Translations under genes and position numbers: made by a program
Sequence record: KM607001
Reading direction: 5' to 3' (one strand)
Source: Enterobacteria phage RB33
Length of the DNA: 64,000 bases
Notes under the pieces: generated by a model
What the model saw: the letters and a program-made list of their open reading frames with translations, nothing else
Database searches by the model: none
What the model was told of the DNA's origin: nothing
Shown: in pieces, positions 1 through 59,974 of the stretch
How the letters are laid out: each line of letters opens with the position of its first letter
How positions within the stretch are numbered: position 1 is the stretch's first letter

Positions 1-2178
1 TTAGGCCGCAAGGGCCTTCATAGTTTTAGCGATTTGGGAAACTTCATCATCACTTAAAGAGTTGCGATAACCGATGAAGTCGGAAACAATACGGAATTTC
101 TTGGTAAACTCAGCAACCATTTTATCACTGTTTTTTGAAGCATTATTTGATAATACATCAAAAAGATTAGTTACTGTCCAGATGTCATGACCAATGGTAT
201 CTTTTCCACCATTAAAATATACACCCTGTAATGAACTAACCATATTAGCGAGTCGTGTATATTCTTCAGAAACTTCATCTACACTGAAGTACTTCATCAT
301 AAAATCTAGCTCAGGATACTTGATAATTTTATCAATATATCGTTTAGCTGAACTTGAATAACCTACATACTTATCATAATCTACATCATCAAAAGCATCT
401 ACATATAAATCACGTAAAGCTTCAAAAATACATTGGCACTGACCGAGTTCTTTTACCTTTTTCTGTAAAAGCGGACGAATAACATAAAATTCATTAATGC
501 CAATAAGATTAGCCATACGAATCAAAATATTCATAGATGGATGACAAAGAGATGTAGTACCATCCATAGAGAAAATATCAGAACGATGCATATACGCTAC
601 ATAACCAGTAATTTCATCTGCTTCTGACGTGAGCGTAAATAATTCCTCTTTTTCCCAGCGCCCGTCTTTAATTTCAAACTTAAATGCTGTAGCAGCTTTA
701 GGACGAGGAGCTTTACTTTTAACTACCTTTGGAATATAGCTTTTAACTAAAGCTTCAATTTCTGACAAATAATGAATGTTAACTTCATCACTTTCAAACA
801 TCGCCATAATGTCAGGAAGCAAATCAATCTGCGATTCTACTTCTGGATTAATAAACAGAAGGCGTTCGTTGTGATGAATATTTAAAGTGTTATTAAATTC
901 ACTATCATCTAACGCATGTGCTAATCCACGGACAATATTAACACGATTTTTAATATTATCAATAACGATATTAATTTTTGTTGTATTAATACCAAACAGA
1001 CGATAACTTGATGCAATGGCTGAAGTTTCATGACTTTGCTTAATGCGTTTCAGTCGAGGGTCAAGATTTACTTCATACACAACTCCTGCATTGCATAACT
1101 TACTGTCAGGTTCAAACATGCTTTGCATCTTTTTATATGACAGATTTTTAGTCGTGAATTTGACTGAATTACTAATCATATAATCTCGAGCAGAATACCC
1201 CATCTTCATCAATTCACGGTATGTGTGACGAGGAGATGTAGATTCTTTAAATCGTTTTACATCTTCATTAAATGCTTTCTCACTAAGCTCTTTAACTCGT
1301 TCAATAATATTTTTACGAGTACGATCATCCAGTGAAAGAGCTTCACGAGATGGAGCAATATCAAGTGAACCCATTGGAAACTTAATGTAATTCACTTCAT
1401 TGCGAATGCTTAGCCAGTTACGGTCTCTAATAACACCATCGATAGGATAAACAATACCACCATAGATAGCATATAATCCACCACGATCAGGCCAGTATCT
1501 TTCTGGATTTACGCCGTAATAATCATCAAAATCCGGAAAATAATCAATTTCGCGGTCAAGACCATTAATGATAGCCAAATCTTTGAATGGTCGCATGATA
1601 TAAGAAACTTCATAAGCAAAGTTTCTAAAGTCTTTTTCTTCAACTGGAACTACGATTTCAATACCAGTTTTATCATCTGGACCCATTTCTTTTACGAATG
1701 TAGGTTTAATCTGTGGTCCATCACCATCCATGTAAGCTACATAACCACGAATTTCACCTTTATGATACGAAGTAATACTAAACGTATCAGTATAACTAAA
1801 CGGAGATTTAGAACCTAAACCAAATCCGCCAATGAAATCGTTAGATTCAGCCTTAGATGAACTGAAGTATGAATTATACAGACCAGGAGAATTATCATCA
1901 CCCTGAATATCAAAATCACTCATACCCGGACCAAAATCTCGACAAACAAATCGCGGATCTAAACGTCCAGGAACTTGTATAATAAATTTTTCAGGATTTC
2001 CATTAAGTGCATGAGCATCAATCATGTTAGTAATCAATTCACGGACTACTGCGCGAATCTTGTTTGTATACAAATCAGATGACAGAATTTTAAATACTTT
2101 AGGAGATGCTGTGATGCTAAATGCTTTTGATTTAGAACCATTACCAAGAATTGTTTCTTTTTCAGTGGTGATAATCAT
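1..2178 (-). CDS. rIIA: rIIA protein, complete (725 aa); stop codon at window edge
   Basis: 725-aa ORF; N-terminus [16 protein letters not shown] and length match T4 rIIA as remembered. Confidence 0.9.
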
Positions 2179-2188
2179 AATTTCCTCA

Positions 2189-2392
2189 TTAATTCATATT
2201 ACGCTTAATAACTTCAGCAACTTCTAGTAGTTCATCTTTAGTTGCGGTGTCAGATTGAATTTTATCTCTAATATCTTTAAAGCGGTTTTTAAATTCTTCG
2301 GCTTCTCCCATATCGAAAAAGCGTTGAATGATTCTATATTCTCGATGAACTGCTTTATCAAAAAGTTCTAAATTTACTTTATATGATTTCAT
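2189..2392 (-). CDS. hypothetical small protein (rIIA.1 position)
   Basis: 67-aa ORF in track, immediately upstream of rIIA on the same strand. Confidence 0.6.
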
Positions 2393-2417
2393 TTCAATAT
2401 CCTCATTTGCCCAATTA

Positions 2418-2447
2418 ATTATACCACATCCTTGTGGTAAAGTAAAC
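2418..2447 (-). promoter_or_regulatory. T4-type early promoter (GTTTAC-18 bp-TATAAT) upstream of rIIA.1/rIIA
   Basis: minus strand reads GTTTACtttaccacaaggatgtggTATAAT; hexamers at 2442-2447 and 2418-2423. Confidence 0.6.
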
Positions 2448-4267
2448 TACTGGCTCATCCATTCTTTACGAAGGTCAGCGTTATCTCCCATGAGCATTTC
2501 AAAAAGCTCTTTCCAGTTCTCAGGAAGTTTAACAACATCATATACTGGATTTTGAATCATCTCACGATATTCAGATTTTTCCAAAGAGCCAAGTCCTTTA
2601 ATATAACGGATGCTATGTTTAGGTAGAGCATCTTTGGCACTCTCATATTCAGCGACTGTATAAAACCATTCTTGTTTTTTGCCGACCTGAGCGATGATTA
2701 CAGGAGTTTTGACAAAACGAATTCGTCCTTGCTCAAACAATTCTGGCCAATTACTAAAAAATCCGAGCAGAGAAGGATAAATGCTTCCTAGACCATCATG
2801 GTCAGCATCAGTCATAATAGCAATATTATGATAATTCAAGTTTTCAGCTTTTTCACCAAGAACTAATCCAGTGATTGCGCAAATATCAAATAGTTCTTTG
2901 TTTTTAAGCATATCAGCATATGACATACCCCAACTGTTGAGAACTTTACCACGTAATGGATAACCACCATGAAGTTCTTTATCACGAACATCAATAAGAT
3001 ATCCGATAGCCGAATCACCCTCAGTCAAGAACAATGTAGTATCAGCATCTTTACCACAAAGATTCGCTTTAATATGTTTATGAACCTTAGCTTTAGAAGC
3101 CTTTTTAGCTGCTTTAGTTTCTGCTGCTTTTTCTGCCGCCAATTTACGAGCCAAAGCAGCTTCAATAATCGGCATTAAAATTGCTTCATTATTTAGAATA
3201 GCACGTGAAATCTTTTTAGCATCAAGTTGAATATGACTACGAATTTCGCCAAATGGAGAAGTCAAACGCTCTTTAGTTTGAGAATCAAATCGCATGTTTT
3301 TCATATCACGAACAAACATAACGATAGTCAAACATTCTTTGACACGTGCTTTAGTTACATCAATTTTGAACTTACGTTTGATTTGTGGAATAAGGTCTTC
3401 ACAAATATCATCCATAACACAGTCAATGTGATGGCCACCATTCTTAGTGTGAATGTTATTCACGTAAGTTAATTGACGAAATCCATCCGGTGAACGACCA
3501 ACCGCAATAGAACAATTTTCTTGCTCTTGAACAATAGCATGTTCATCATACTGCCGTGCATATTTCTTAAAATTACCCTGAACCTTTTTACCATTAAAGG
3601 TAAATTGAATATCAGGATAAACAACAGCAAGTGTCTGGAGACGATCTAATGTAATGTCAAGATAAACTTGGGACAACTCATTAGTTTCAAATGACATAAA
3701 ATCAGGAATGAAAGTAACACGAGTTCCTTTCCATTTTCCAGGAATATCTTCCCATGATTTATTTTCCATGCCATTTGAACAACGAACTACAATATTATTT
3801 TGACCATCACCAGTTTCACCGACAAACATCACAGAAAAAATGTTTGTCAAACTAGAACCAACACCGTTCATACCGCCGGTGACGCGTTCTTTATCATCAC
3901 CGAAGTTACCACCTGCTTTTGGAATAGTCCATGCAGCAACAGGACCAGGAATTTCTTCACCGGTAGGTGTTTTAACCATCGCCTGTGGAATACCGCGACC
4001 GTTATCTTCAACTGTTACTTGATTGTTTTTAATAGTAACATTAATTTTATTTGCGAATTTAAACTTAGTACGAATACCTTCATCTACTGAGTTATCGATA
4101 ATTTCATCAATAAGCTTAACAAGACCAGGTACATACTGAACACTTTCCCATTTACCAAACAGAAAGCGCTCATGCATTTCATTAGCTGAAGAGCCAATGT
4201 ACATGCCGCTACGCTTTTTGATATGTTCAATATCGCTCAGAATTTTAATTTCATTCTTAATCATCAC
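2447..4267 (-). CDS. 39: DNA topoisomerase II large subunit (GyrB-like ATPase), contiguous gene 39 (606 aa)
   Basis: 606-aa ORF with GHKL ATPase and toprim-like motifs (NGRGIP, TEGDSA); one uninterrupted reading frame. Confidence 0.9.
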   Translation of the reverse strand: MMIKNEIKILSDIEHIKKRSGMYIGSSANEMHERFLFGKWESVQYVPGLVKLIDEIIDNSVDEGIRTKFKFANKINVTIKNNQVTVEDNGRGIPQAMVKTPTGEEIPGPVAAWTIPKAGGNFGDDKERVTGGMNGVGSSLTNIFSVMFVGETGDGQNNIVVRCSNGMENKSWEDIPGKWKGTRVTFIPDFMSFETNELSQVYLDITLDRLQTLAVVYPDIQFTFNGKKVQGNFKKYARQYDEHAIVQEQENCSIAVGRSPDGFRQLTYVNNIHTKNGGHHIDCVMDDICEDLIPQIKRKFKIDVTKARVKECLTIVMFVRDMKNMRFDSQTKERLTSPFGEIRSHIQLDAKKISRAILNNEAILMPIIEAALARKLAAEKAAETKAAKKASKAKVHKHIKANLCGKDADTTLFLTEGDSAIGYLIDVRDKELHGGYPLRGKVLNSWGMSYADMLKNKELFDICAITGLVLGEKAENLNYHNIAIMTDADHDGLGSIYPSLLGFFSNWPELFEQGRIRFVKTPVIIAQVGKKQEWFYTVAEYESAKDALPKHSIRYIKGLGSLEKSEYREMIQNPVYDVVKLPENWKELFEMLMGDNADLRKEWMSQ

Positions 4268-11437: not shown

Positions 11438-12040
11438 TTATAGATTAAATCCTTCAAAATCAAGAGTATAGATAGTGTATGTTGAATACTTTTTGTACTC
11501 ATATCTATCTGCAATTCTAAATACACTTCCAGCTGGTATCATTACTTCTTGTTCATCTGAAACTAATTCCATATTACGATAGCGATGACTATCCGGAAAC
11601 TTAAAGTTTGGATTGTATTCTTTACAGCGTAGAGCTTTTATAGCATACTCCTGGAAATTGAATACCATAGGAGCTTTGAATTCAAAAATAACTTGTGTGT
11701 TATACTCTAAACCAGAAGCAAAATGTAGAGCTATATTTTTATCATATGAAGCTGATACGACTTTATCAAATGTAATAATATCAATTCCTTGATTTAATAC
11801 TTGCTTAGTCTCGACTGGAACACCTCTCCAAAGAGGTTTATCGTTTGGAACCAAACGAGATTTGATTATTTCATTTAACCAAGTATGGTCATCTGGTTTG
11901 TTGGTAATACAATGAATTAAAAGTTCAATTTCAGATAAATTAAACCCTTCAGAAAGTAATTCTTCACGAATAGAAGCACGCACCGATGCATCCATTGATT
12001 TTATTTTAAAATCTTTTAGTTGCATTACTGAGTATTTCAT
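11438..12040 (-). CDS. modA: ADP-ribosyltransferase ModA, 200 aa
   Basis: 200-aa ORF paralogous to adjacent 207-aa ORF; size and position as T4 ModA. Confidence 0.8.
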   Translation of the reverse strand: MKYSVMQLKDFKIKSMDASVRASIREELLSEGFNLSEIELLIHCITNKPDDHTWLNEIIKSRLVPNDKPLWRGVPVETKQVLNQGIDIITFDKVVSASYDKNIALHFASGLEYNTQVIFEFKAPMVFNFQEYAIKALRCKEYNPNFKFPDSHRYRNMELVSDEQEVMIPAGSVFRIADRYEYKKYSTYTIYTLDFEGFNL

Positions 12041-12660
12041 TCAACTACCTCAATATCATAAACTTTAAATGTTCCAAATGAATCGTGTAATTTTTCTTTT
12101 GAAATAGAAGTTATTCTATACTTTCCAATTGGAATCATCCATTCTTGTTCACGCACAATCATCATTAAGTTATCAGTACGTTCTGAATCTAATCCATCAG
12201 TATCTTCATACGTGTACTTAAACTCAGTATTAGGAGAAGAAAGTATAATATCGCTGATATGGTCAGAATAATTAAAAGCTTTATCAGTTTTTAAGCGAAA
12301 TATTATTTCAGTGAAATACTCAACATAAGAAAAACCACATGCTGTGTGCAAACTAGTAGTAAATGAATCTACCCTGTTCGTTGAAAACACTTCTCCAACT
12401 TGTAAATCTTTAATGAGTTCTTTTGTCGATTTTGATATACCACGATATAACTGATATGGTGATTTAGTTAAATGCTTTTTAATGATTTTATTCAACTGCC
12501 TATGAAGAGCTTCATTCTTTTTGGCTTCCATACATTGCCAAAGAATTGACTGTTCAAAGTCAGTAAATTTTTCACAGACCTTTTTATACATATCATATTG
12601 AAAATCAACGCTTTCAGCTTTTATAGATAACTGTTCAACATCTGCAAGATTAATAATCAT
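12037..12660 (-). CDS. modB: ADP-ribosyltransferase ModB, 207 aa
   Basis: 207-aa paralogue of ModA; ATGA overlap. Confidence 0.8.
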   Translation of the reverse strand: MIINLADVEQLSIKAESVDFQYDMYKKVCEKFTDFEQSILWQCMEAKKNEALHRQLNKIIKKHLTKSPYQLYRGISKSTKELIKDLQVGEVFSTNRVDSFTTSLHTACGFSYVEYFTEIIFRLKTDKAFNYSDHISDIILSSPNTEFKYTYEDTDGLDSERTDNLMMIVREQEWMIPIGKYRITSISKEKLHDSFGTFKVYDIEVVE

Positions 12661-17266: not shown

Positions 17267-17670
17267 ATTAACCTCTATTCATAAAAGCATTAAAAATTTG
17301 GTCATCAATAGATGGCGCAGTAATATTTTCTGCATCATTTAGCAAATCATTAATTTCATCAGATAGCATAACACATGTACCTTTATTTCCTGTAATTGTT
17401 ACTGCGCAATTACGAACGTTTTCTTTATTAAATTTTAGGTTAATATTTTCGTAATGAAAATCCTTTAATGCTGAATATATTTTTAAAATAAAATTGTCTT
17501 TTACTACAATAAACCCAACCTCACTATTAAAACGTGGTTCATGGAAACTGTAATAAACCTTTTCATCTATAAAATCGTATGAAATTTTTTCCATTTTTAA
17601 ATATGAAAATTCAGAACTATACATATTAACCTTTATTCATAAAAGCATTAAAAATTTGGTCATCAATAGA
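17264..17670. repeat. 49-bp direct repeat (48/49 identical) at the 3' ends of two paralogous genes
   Basis: catattaacctCtattcataaaagcattaaaaatttggtcatcaataga at 17264-17312 and 17622-17670. Confidence 0.8.
17268..17624 (-). CDS. hypothetical protein (61.1 position), 118 aa
   Basis: ORF in track; C-terminus DDQIFNAFMNRG shared with the next ORF. Confidence 0.6.
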   Translation of the reverse strand: MYSSEFSYLKMEKISYDFIDEKVYYSFHEPRFNSEVGFIVVKDNFILKIYSALKDFHYENINLKFNKENVRNCAVTITGNKGTCVMLSDEINDLLNDAENITAPSIDDQIFNAFMNRG

Positions 17671-18246
17671 AACATTTACTTTAGACTGTTTTTCTGATGG
17701 TAATTCATATCCACATATTACAATTTTGTGATCAATATCAAAATACACAGAAGCAATATGATTAATGATGTTTTCAGTAAAGTCTAAATCAACATCAATA
17801 TCTTTTTGACCACAGCCCAAAGGATAAATAATGCGAGTAATTCGATTATCTTTAACAAATATTCCACCGACATACTCTGTGCTGCGTTTAAAGTCTACAC
17901 GCCGACGAAATGAAAAATATTCAGGCTCTCTATGAGCTCGGCTCATAGGACACAACGAGTAACTAGAATAAGAGATGTCAAATCCTACGCCTTCGATATG
18001 AGCCAAAGTGTCATGATTAAACCAATTATAATCGTACGCCAAATCCATTAGATTATAATATGTAAAAGGCACCGGATTAACATCATTAGTCACAAGCATG
18101 TAATTAGCAACTGCTATAATTTCATTGTTTTTAACGAATACAAACCGTGATTGATGCGAATGACCTGGACCCGCGTTTTCACGATTAATGATATAACACT
18201 GAGACTTTTTATATTTGTAAGAATCATACTTATACATTTGAAACAT
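17626..18246 (-). CDS. hypothetical protein (61.2 position), 206 aa
   Basis: ORF in track; C-terminal half paralogous to the 118-aa ORF. Confidence 0.6.
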   Translation of the reverse strand: MFQMYKYDSYKYKKSQCYIINRENAGPGHSHQSRFVFVKNNEIIAVANYMLVTNDVNPVPFTYYNLMDLAYDYNWFNHDTLAHIEGVGFDISYSSYSLCPMSRAHREPEYFSFRRRVDFKRSTEYVGGIFVKDNRITRIIYPLGCGQKDIDVDLDFTENIINHIASVYFDIDHKIVICGYELPSEKQSKVNVSIDDQIFNAFMNKG

Positions 18247-57338: not shown

Positions 57339-57520
57339 AAGGAATTTATATAATTAATAAGTTCTTGTTCTTTATTATCGAATTCTTTAGAAAGTTCTTC
57401 GTACTCGTTTGCACTAAAAGGACCGCATTCATTACAAACTTTTTCCAATTCACTATTTTTATCCATAACTTCATGGATAAGAGAAAAGAGTTTGTCTTTT
57501 TGTTCTTTGCTTAGGCTCAT
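57335..57520 (-). CDS. hypothetical small protein
   Basis: 61-aa ORF. Confidence 0.5.
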   Translation of the reverse strand: MSLSKEQKDKLFSLIHEVMDKNSELEKVCNECGPFSANEYEELSKEFDNKEQELINYINSL

Positions 57521-57686
57521 ATATTAATTTCCAGAAGTTTTAAAATAATTCGCTTTTGCTTAAATATTTCCATAGTTAAATGATCAGTATCTTTTTGACC
57601 AATTCCAATAGCAAAACCTTTATTAGCAACGAGTTCAATTAAATTATCAAGTTCACGTGACACTTCATATTGTAACTCAGAACTAT

Positions 57687-57899
57687 TCATTTCGGTTTAC
57701 CTTCTTTAACGAAATCTGGATAAGGATAAAATCCCGAATAAAATCCTTCACCTTTATGATTGATGCATCCTTTATTAGAACAATAGCACCAATAATCGAA
57801 ATCACAAGCCATTTCATCATTACATAAAGCAAAAACAACCGGCCATTTACACTTTTCACAATGGGCATTTTTAAGAATACTAGTTTGGCTCATAACCAT
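57687..57899 (-). CDS. cysteine-rich small protein
   Basis: about 8 Cys in 70 aa (CEKCKW...CNDEMACDFDYWCYCSNKGC). Confidence 0.5.
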   Translation of the reverse strand: MVMSQTSILKNAHCEKCKWPVVFALCNDEMACDFDYWCYCSNKGCINHKGEGFYSGFYPYPDFVKEGKPK

Positions 57900-58102
57900 G
57901 TAACCTTTAAGCAATATTCTTCTACATGTTGTTTACGACCTTTCTTATCAATAAAGGTATATTCAACGAATGTTCCAATGTAGTCTTTATCTACATCATG
58001 TGGACTATTAATTGGACATTTAGTACGACAAATGCGTTCCCATTGACGAATAATTACTGTCTTATTCTTTGGGTCATATGGATGTGGATAATGTATATTC
58101 AT
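57890..58102 (-). CDS. hypothetical small protein
   Basis: ORF in track; start moved to MNIHYPH. Confidence 0.45.
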   Translation of the reverse strand: MNIHYPHPYDPKNKTVIIRQWERICRTKCPINSPHDVDKDYIGTFVEYTFIDKKGRKQHVEEYCLKVTWL

Positions 58103-58566
58103 AATAATGGTTCCCAATCAACAATCACAATTTCTAATTTAGAGGAATATGTATCTAAAATCCCCTCAATAATATCCCAGTTCCCTTTACCTATGCCTGC
58201 ACCAATCCTAGGCATATAGATTGTAGGTTTAGTCAGTTTATTTTCACCAAACTCATTTAATTCTAACATACAATTCATTAAAGCGGAATACTCAAAATTT
58301 GGCCCTGGTTGAAATTGAGTATAAAGATTAAAGCAATACGCTTTATGAGTCCTAAAGTATTTTTCATAGACTGAGTAAGAACCGAGTTTAGTTACATCAC
58401 CACATTCAGTCTGTAATTTATCAGCTTCCAAAATTTTAGGGAAAGCTTTGGTTAATTGACCCGCTACACCTGAACCCATAGTATGAAAACAATTGCATCC
58501 ATGCGCAATATTTTTACCTTCAGCGAAAAGGGCGACAATATCGCCCTTGATATATTTTACAATCAT
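58099..58566 (-). CDS. macro domain protein (ADP-ribose binding / hydrolase-like), 155 aa
   Basis: KGDI..., GCNCFHTMGSGVAGQL and RIGAGIGKG match macro-domain glycine-rich motifs by eye. Confidence 0.55.
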   Translation of the reverse strand: MIVKYIKGDIVALFAEGKNIAHGCNCFHTMGSGVAGQLTKAFPKILEADKLQTECGDVTKLGSYSVYEKYFRTHKAYCFNLYTQFQPGPNFEYSALMNCMLELNEFGENKLTKPTIYMPRIGAGIGKGNWDIIEGILDTYSSKLEIVIVDWEPLL

Positions 58567-58910
58567 CTAGTACTCAATCCTCGATTATAAGAATCTACCA
58601 AACGGTCAACCATTGAATGACAAGCGGCTTTATCTTTCTCCTCCGCAACTGAACATTCTAAGGTATTCCACTTTTTAGCATATCGTTTTAATAATGTATC
58701 GTTTTTGTATCTGCTTGATTTATCTCTTTCTCCGTCTTTATATGCATATATTAATTTCTGTGCAAATTCAGCTTGGCATGCTTTATTTTTCCCACAATAA
58801 TCTGCCGCAGTGCGGTTTACATATTCTCTAATTTCAGTATATGATGTATCTGCTGACGCAGAAGCAGAAAATGAAATTAATCCTATACATAAAACCAAAA
58901 TTTTAGTCAT
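58563..58910 (-). CDS. secreted small protein with signal peptide, 115 aa
   Basis: N-terminal signal MTKILVLCIGLISFSASASA. Confidence 0.55.
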   Translation of the reverse strand: MTKILVLCIGLISFSASASADTSYTEIREYVNRTAADYCGKNKACQAEFAQKLIYAYKDGERDKSSRYKNDTLLKRYAKKWNTLECSVAEEKDKAACHSMVDRLVDSYNRGLSTR

Positions 58911-59448
58911 TTACTATTTCCAAAAGTTTATTATTTTTAAGGTAATTAGCCTTTTCTAGGACTTCAGAAGCATATTTAGAACCTGCTTTAACATTCCATC
59001 CCGAATTATAAGAGGATATTGCTTTTCTTATATCGCCCTTATGTATATTTAACCAATAAGAAAGTTCAATGTACGCCCAGGAAGCTGAATTGGATCGTTT
59101 ATTCAACATTCTTTTTATTTCAGCATCGGTCATATTATAACCAAGTTCCTTAACTCTTGCTCGCATAGTAGGCAAATAATTTTGGAACATTCCGTAGGCA
59201 TGATGCTTTGGTTTAGATTTTAAATTAACTCCGCCAGAGCTTTCTTGCCATAAAATAGCAGCCATTATATGACCTAATCCGCTCTTGTGGATATTTTTAT
59301 GTGTTTTATATTTTCCATCCTTAGAAAATTGTTCCCCGAATTGATACGCGTAACGCATGTTATCGAGTTGGACATTACTGAAAGTATGCTCGGAGCTATG
59401 TGCCATCATTGAAATGGCCAATAGACCAGCGAGTAGTGCTTTTCTCAT
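58903..59448 (-). CDS. periplasmic lytic-transglycosylase-like (SLT) protein, 181 aa
   Basis: signal peptide; SLT-like ILWQESSGG motif. Confidence 0.55.
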   Translation of the reverse strand: MRKALLAGLLAISMMAHSSEHTFSNVQLDNMRYAYQFGEQFSKDGKYKTHKNIHKSGLGHIMAAILWQESSGGVNLKSKPKHHAYGMFQNYLPTMRARVKELGYNMTDAEIKRMLNKRSNSASWAYIELSYWLNIHKGDIRKAISSYNSGWNVKAGSKYASEVLEKANYLKNNKLLEIVND

Positions 59449-59944: not shown

Positions 59945-59974
59945 ATTATACCACAGTCAAGAGGAAAAGTAAAC
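59945..59974 (-). promoter_or_regulatory. T4-type early promoter upstream of regB
   Basis: minus strand GTTTACttttcctcttgactgtggTATAAT. Confidence 0.6.

Follow-up and report, generated by a model that had tools for sequence, protein, structure and literature searches.

By sequence and gene order, the open reading frame at positions 58099–58566 (minus strand) is the RB32 orthologue of T4 tk.4 (adfM); coordinates refer to the window, that is, the whole stretch of 64,000 nucleotides that was analysed. Its product is a stand-alone macrodomain that probably works as an early-expressed, orphan antitoxin-like counter-defence against DarTG2, hydrolysing the ADP-ribose attached to DNA. The identity of the gene and its anti-DarTG2 role are already known for the near-identical T4 protein, and the addition of the present analysis is a predicted glutamine-type active site, which in sequence comparisons sets Tk.4 apart from DarG and from the AdfM of phage PhiKZ.

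Gene identity and transcriptional context

The 2.1-kb stretch around the gene is 100% identical to Escherichia phage RB32 (DQ904452/NC_008515; window coordinates equal record coordinates plus 119), and the annotation of that record names the ORF tk.4. The coding sequence begins with ATG and specifies 155 residues, the same length as T4 Tk.4, with which 153 of the 155 residues are identical. The two differences (C55W and T112I, where RB32 has C55 and T112 and T4 has W55 and I112) both fall in variable columns of an alignment of 60 homologues. The order vs–tk.4–tk.3 is common to both phages, so that the T4 gene represents the sister-phage copy of the same gene in the same place.

Directly upstream of tk.4, and co-directional with it, lies vs (58563–58910, minus strand), assigned as the valyl-tRNA synthetase modifier by PHROG 1256 and by annotation. 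Directly downstream is tk.3 (57890–58102, minus strand; DUF7202), followed by ORF111c (57687–57899, minus strand), which encodes 70 residues and matches Pfam PF23895, "Phage zinc binding domain". The initial annotation had described two small Cys-rich proteins immediately upstream. Since the gene is on the minus strand, these two ORFs, tk.3 and ORF111c, are in fact downstream in transcription, and the term Cys-rich fits ORF111c, with seven cysteines, but not tk.3, with three. The stop of vs overlaps the start of tk.4, and the stop of tk.4 the start of tk.3, each in the sequence ATGA, within a compact block of early genes transcribed in one direction (regB–vs.1–vs–tk.4–tk.3–ORF111c–ORF110c–tk.2–tk.1–tk). 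A Shine–Dalgarno-like purine tract, GAGGATTGAG (58573–58582, minus strand), recognised by reading the sequence, is located 7–16 nt 5' of the ATG, within the end of vs.

A consensus scan for promoters and terminators between 56 and 62.5 kb was uninformative overall, with 27 promoter-like sites against 26.5 expected, and after reading of the sequence only one of its promoter-like sites was retained. This is a T4-early-type promoter (GTTTAC, a spacing of 17, TGgTATAAT; 59945–59973, minus strand) just upstream of regB and 1.4 kb upstream of tk.4, which represents the nearest strong promoter-like site 5' of regB–vs.1–vs–tk.4. The consensus scan found no terminator-like site on the minus strand from this promoter to tk.4. 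The regB promoter would drive tk.4, and the presence of a T4-type early promoter upstream, with no intervening terminator-like site on that strand, makes early expression of the gene plausible. The whole window contains 17 matches to the MotA-box-plus-minus-10 pattern TGCTTNA-N11-13-TANNNT where 4.6 would be expected, and most of them are on the minus strand, an excess that fits T4-type middle promoters; no site with this pattern was found on the minus strand from regB to tk.4.

Other features of this block deserve mention. A G+C-rich inverted repeat with an 8-bp stem (AAGGGCGA-CAATA-TCGCCCTT; 58528–58548), within codons 7–13 of tk.4, was flagged by the scan as terminator-like on the antisense (plus) strand; folding close to the start codon of the tk.4 mRNA is just as conceivable, and the repeat is probably a chance occurrence. 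Between tk.2 and tk.3, further downstream of tk.4, RB32 holds two small ORFs on the minus strand (57517–57690 and 57687–57899) that are absent from T4, an indel in an early-gene block that is otherwise collinear. The second of them, ORF111c, is annotated as "similar to RB49ORF089c". The vs.1 gene (58903–59448, minus strand) encodes 181 residues that include a signal-like hydrophobic stretch at the N-terminal end and a domain of the SLT lytic transglycosylase type (25 bits in Pfam, with a cut-off of 21.3), as would suit a small enzyme of the early region that is exported to cleave peptidoglycan.

Macro-domain assignment

The initial annotation was right in calling the 155-residue product a macro domain, and this assignment is confirmed here by several means. 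Tk.4 matches Pfam PF01661 with 28 bits (gathering cut-off of 22), residues 22–132 aligning with profile positions 2–113 of 118, and no other Pfam family was detected even at E ≤ 1. Sequence searches of the PDB retrieved BT1257, Poa1p, TARG1, SCO6735, and DarG. The AlphaFold2 model (60 homologues; pLDDT of 95.9, pTM of 0.91) displays the three-layer alpha/beta/alpha macro fold, and its top Foldseek neighbours are TARG1, Poa1p, BT1257, and DarG.

Tk.4 also matches PHROG 335 ("phosphatase") at 1e-65. This product name was rejected as evidence of function, as it derives from the name of the SMART A1pp domain and not from an assay. The remark "contains A1pp phosphatase motif" stands in the T4 record of tk.4, an annotation that dates back to the T4 genome papers; the A1pp match of tk.4 orthologues also appears in a comparison of T4-like genomes published in 2006 (PMC1524935).

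The closest structural neighbours of Tk.4 belong to the ALC1-like class (TARG1/DarG/Poa1p/SCO6735), a class it shares with human TARG1 (OARD1) and yeast Poa1p. The catalytic lysine of the class (TARG1 K84, DarG K80) is replaced in Tk.4 by Gln84, a change that is compatible with membership because SCO6735 shows that the class tolerates glutamine at the lysine position. The similarity of the Tk.4 family to Poa1p, an ADP-ribose-1''-phosphate phosphatase that has an insertion of ~25 residues relative to Tk.4, is about equally good.

Tk.4 does not qualify as a DarG: the DarG profile (NCBIfam NF048014; PADLOC DarG) scores 29.4 bits against a cut-off of 250, and the match spans only positions 2–146 of 338. 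DarG2, known structurally from the macrodomains of T. aquaticus (5M31/5M3E) and M. tuberculosis (5M3I), has the catalytic Lys80, a C-terminal DarT-binding domain and an adjacent darT gene. Tk.4 has Gln84 in place of the lysine and lacks the other two, and beside tk.4 no darT was found, its neighbours being vs and tk.3 of the phage early-gene block.

A glutamine-type active site

Binding of ADP-ribose by Tk.4 is predicted from the conservation of two glycine-rich loops (residues 31–36 and 121–128) and of N25. The first loop, G31-S-G-V-A-G36 (58459–58476, minus strand), of the GxG kind typical of macro domains (PMC9503650), would bind the phosphates of ADP-ribose, and the second is contained in the segment P119-R-I-G-A-G-I-G-K-G-N-W130 (58177–58212, minus strand). 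The predicted active-site histidine and asparagine are found in the motif H22-G-C-N25-C26 (58489–58503, minus strand), and the glutamine at the position of the catalytic lysine in the motif Y82-T83-Q84 (58315–58323, minus strand). According to a profile alignment to TARG1 and to MAFFT, Q84 shares its column with the catalytic lysine of TARG1 (K84), of DarG (K80), and of the FPTK motif of PhiKZ gp104, while the column of TARG1 D125, also catalytic, is occupied by G126 in Tk.4.

These residues are strongly conserved. In the alignment of 60 homologues, G23, N25, G33, A35, D49, Y82, T83, Q84, P119, I121, G122, and G124 are invariant and H22 is nearly so, and among the stand-alone bacterial relatives H22, N25, and the glutamine are each present in 76 of 76 sequences, G33 and A35 being invariant as well. 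Q84 is thus invariant in 136 relatives (60 and 76), and the glutamine is also present in phage homologues of distant origin, from Felixounavirus, Pakpunavirus, Vequintavirus, Seunavirus, Schizotequatrovirus, and a Bacillus phage. The invariance of YTQ, D49, and N80 is meaningful because these positions lie outside the patterns with which the bacterial relatives were retrieved.

A precedent for such an active site is SCO6735 of Streptomyces coelicolor (PDB 5E3B), a cellular rather than phage protein. Among ALC1-like macrodomains it is the only one known to do without the lysine and still remove thymidine-linked ADP-ribose from DNA and counteract DarT, whose toxicity it rescues (PMC9411070). In this protein, Gln85 replaces the lysine, activity is completely lost in Q85A and almost completely in N27S, and a water-mediated mechanism has been proposed (PMC9411070). 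When Tk.4, gp104, or the DarG of M. tuberculosis served as the query of PDB searches, SCO6735 ranked too low, and it was therefore aligned through a query with BT1257 (2FG1/2AFC), the best structural neighbour of Tk.4 and a close orthologue of SCO6735 (E 1e-53). Only about 21–29% of residues are identical between Tk.4 and these two proteins, and Tk.4 has invariant motifs of its own (HGCNC, D49, and N-x-YTQ). Nevertheless, H22, N25, Q84, G122, and G124 of Tk.4 align with His24, Asn27, Gln85, Gly126, and Gly128 of SCO6735 (hhalign probability of 98.6%, E 1.4e-15), so that the glutamine at the catalytic position, the supporting histidine and asparagine, and the two loop glycines are all found in Tk.4. 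The DNA-positioning lysines of SCO6735, Lys34 and Lys89, align with S32 and G88, which suggests that the DNA-binding mode is not conserved.

Distribution and relatives

Homologues of Tk.4 were detected in 2,846 of 50,697 phage records, approximately one in 18, including those of Pseudomonas, Vibrio, and Acinetobacter phages, Felixounavirus, and Vequintavirinae. Tk.4-like proteins are also found at no fewer than 516 loci in bacterial species genomes, nearly all of them stand-alone proteins of about 150 residues. The surroundings of the best 80 bacterial loci, up to a distance of 6 kb, were searched by tblastn with one P. aeruginosa DarT2 query, and no homologue of this toxin was found (best E of 2.9). 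The neighbours of the bacterial relatives are heterogeneous, with 149 proteins distributed over 109 Pfam families and no dominant family among them. Both surveys are limited in sensitivity, the first by its single query and the second by crude ORF calls and the restriction to the top 25 families. Taken together, the lack of DarT2 near the best 80 loci and of a dominant neighbouring family makes the Tk.4 family look like an orphan hydrolase rather than the detached half of a DarTG operon. Since the bacterial relatives are not found beside DarT, the ancestral job of the family may be something else.

Three loci among the relatives are worth describing. In Pseudomonas phage IQPL (positions 1–3480 of the extracted locus), the Tk.4-like macro gene directly follows genes for ribose-phosphate pyrophosphokinase and nicotinamide phosphoribosyltransferase, both of NAD salvage, a hint that phage macrodomains of this family in some cases move together with genes that replenish NAD. 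The 44-kb contig JBOFGC010000414.1, from a "Bacilli bacterium" MAG, has its macro gene surrounded by genes for T4 Rnl1, a Dda-like helicase, PNKP, dCMP deaminase, and a T4-type spanin, and appears to come from a T4-like phage, misplaced in a bacterial MAG by binning. In Felixounavirus LF82P5 (3001–3777 of the locus), whose record is unannotated, the macro reading frame runs to 259 residues, about 100 past the domain, and these are either a genuine extension of the C terminus or a neighbouring gene fused to it.

Proposed role in countering DarTG2

The initial annotation had offered, as an alternative, that the macro domain counters DarT-type toxins, an idea in line with the genetic results published for the T4 protein, to which that of RB32 is 99% identical. 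T-even phages without AdfA and AdfN remain resistant to DarTG2, from which a further factor was predicted (PMC11257639). In a preprint of November 2025, a T4 transposon library grown on a DarTG2 host yielded tk.4 as the single significant hit, its insertions being tolerated in the absence of DarTG2 and lost specifically on the DarTG2 host; a clean tk.4 knockout sensitised T4 to DarTG2, and the gene was named adfM (10.1101/2025.11.20.689424). The requirement of tk.4 for DarTG2 resistance has thus been shown in T4, and the 99% identity and the synteny suggest that it extends to RB32.

On this basis, the following mechanism can be proposed. Upon infection, host DarT2 would attach ADP-ribose to thymidines of single-stranded phage DNA, blocking replication. 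Tk.4, made early, would bind the ADP-ribose in a pocket formed by its two glycine loops and hydrolyse the N-glycosidic bond between ribose and thymine, restoring the base. Gln84, held by Asn25 and with His22 nearby, would position the distal ribose for attack by water. We infer this mechanism from the 99% identity to the T4 protein, the fold, the conserved residues, and the precedents of SCO6735 and gp104, and chemistry of the SCO6735 type is the most likely. TARG1 likewise removes thymidine-linked ADP-ribose from DNA (PMC8501950, PMC10951314); however, its mechanism depends on the lysine, which DarG also keeps, and differs from the Gln84 chemistry proposed here.

Protection need not be hydrolytic, since catalytically dead SCO6735 (Q85A), a variant of the nearest characterised relative, still inhibits DarT efficiently through interaction (PMC9411070). 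Protection by Tk.4 could therefore consist mainly in an inhibitory interaction with DarT2 or in the shielding of modified DNA. The preprint evidence on T4 tk.4, being purely genetic, would accommodate this alternative, enzymatic removal being described there only as something that "seems likely" (10.1101/2025.11.20.689424), as would the absence from Tk.4 of the DNA-positioning lysines of SCO6735. We nevertheless regard it as unlikely. N25, D49, Y82, T83, Q84, and the glycine loops are invariant, and H22 nearly so, across distant relatives from phages and bacteria that encounter DarT proteins of very different kinds or none at all, which argues for selection on catalysis, and nothing in the 155 residues of Tk.4 corresponds to the C-terminal domain with which DarG binds DarT.

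It is improbable to a similar degree that Tk.4 primarily processes small ADP-ribose derivatives, such as ADP-ribose-1''-phosphate, O-acetyl-ADP-ribose, or immune-signalling or toxic ADP-ribose metabolites, with protection against DarTG2 being secondary. The likeness to Poa1p and the historical name of phosphatase point in this direction, as do a published comparative-genomics argument (PMC9503650) and the NAD-salvage or RNA-repair genes that neighbour Tk.4-like genes in other phages. However, the sole experimental phenotype is specific to DarTG2, SCO6735, the closest characterised relative, works on DNA and protein ADP-ribosylation, and no assay stands behind the phosphatase label. Turnover of such small derivatives may still be an additional activity of Tk.4.

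A role of Tk.4 broader than that against DarT2, in which its Gln-type active site without the DNA-positioning lysines of SCO6735 would also accept other ADP-ribosyl conjugates (the marks or RNA chains added by Alt, ModA, and ModB, or RNA ADP-ribosylated by other defence systems), is very doubtful. If it were true, T-even phages would own a true writer–eraser circuit. Papers on CmdTAC and on cytidine ADP-ribosylation contained nothing relevant to Tk.4. The initial annotation had suggested that the phage, with ModA, ModB, and the macro domain, may both write and erase ADP-ribosylation. This narrower form of the idea, in which Tk.4 would strip host proteins of the ADP-ribose, or of the RNA chains, added by Alt, ModA, and ModB of the phage itself, is extremely unlikely: although one genome encodes both activities and SCO6735 can to some extent remove ADP-ribose from protein, namely from automodified PARP1 (PMC9411070), ModA targets arginine (Arg265 of the RNA polymerase alpha subunit; PMC8120803), a linkage cleaved by ARH enzymes and, among macrodomains, only by the DUF4804 class of MavL and Larg1, with no evidence of its removal by MacroD-type, PARG-like, or ALC1-like macrodomains (PMC10951314), whereas Tk.4 matches only PF01661, showing neither the DUF4804 family nor its active-site motifs. 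Nor are the genes encoded alongside each other, as had been stated, since ModA (11438–12040) and ModB (12037–12660) are 46 kb away in different transcription units; ModB relatives occur in 1,012 phage records, nearly all of phages of enterobacteria, so that Tk.4 homologues are far commoner and differ in host range; and the loss of tk.4 insertions is specific to the DarTG2 host.

Two macrodomain lineages named AdfM

Hydrolysis of DNA ADP-ribose by Tk.4 thus remains the preferred reading, and it has a parallel in another phage. In 2026, a paper in Cell Reports independently gave the name AdfM to gp104 of PhiKZ, which removes DarT2 marks from DNA in vitro, the N23A mutant being less active (PMC13309987). 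Like Tk.4, gp104 is a phage-encoded stand-alone macrodomain that counters DarTG2, and its N23 corresponds to N25 of Tk.4. In contrast to Tk.4, gp104 retains the lysine of the FPTK motif, and it has a match to DarG of M. tuberculosis with an E of 9e-25; the alignment between both phage proteins covers only 46 residues with 22% identity (E 0.004). These comparisons indicate that the two proteins called AdfM are separate lineages, gp104 being of the lysine type. In addition, gp104 enters the phage nucleus by import, and its activity has been demonstrated in vitro (PMC13309987), whereas that of Tk.4 is predicted. Phages therefore appear to have recruited two different macrodomain lineages for one task, the Tk.4 type and that of PhiKZ gp104. 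Neither the T4 preprint nor the PhiKZ paper mentions SCO6735 or the lysine or glutamine at this position.

As already pointed out in the literature, T-even phages carry layered, enzyme-based counters to DNA ADP-ribosylation, namely AdfA, AdfN, and AdfM. RB32 also has gene 61.2 (17626–18246, minus strand), a homologue of the anti-DarT1 factor adfA. Adjoining it is an ORF annotated as "similar to gp61.2" (17268–17624, minus strand), possibly a partial duplication of this anti-defence gene.
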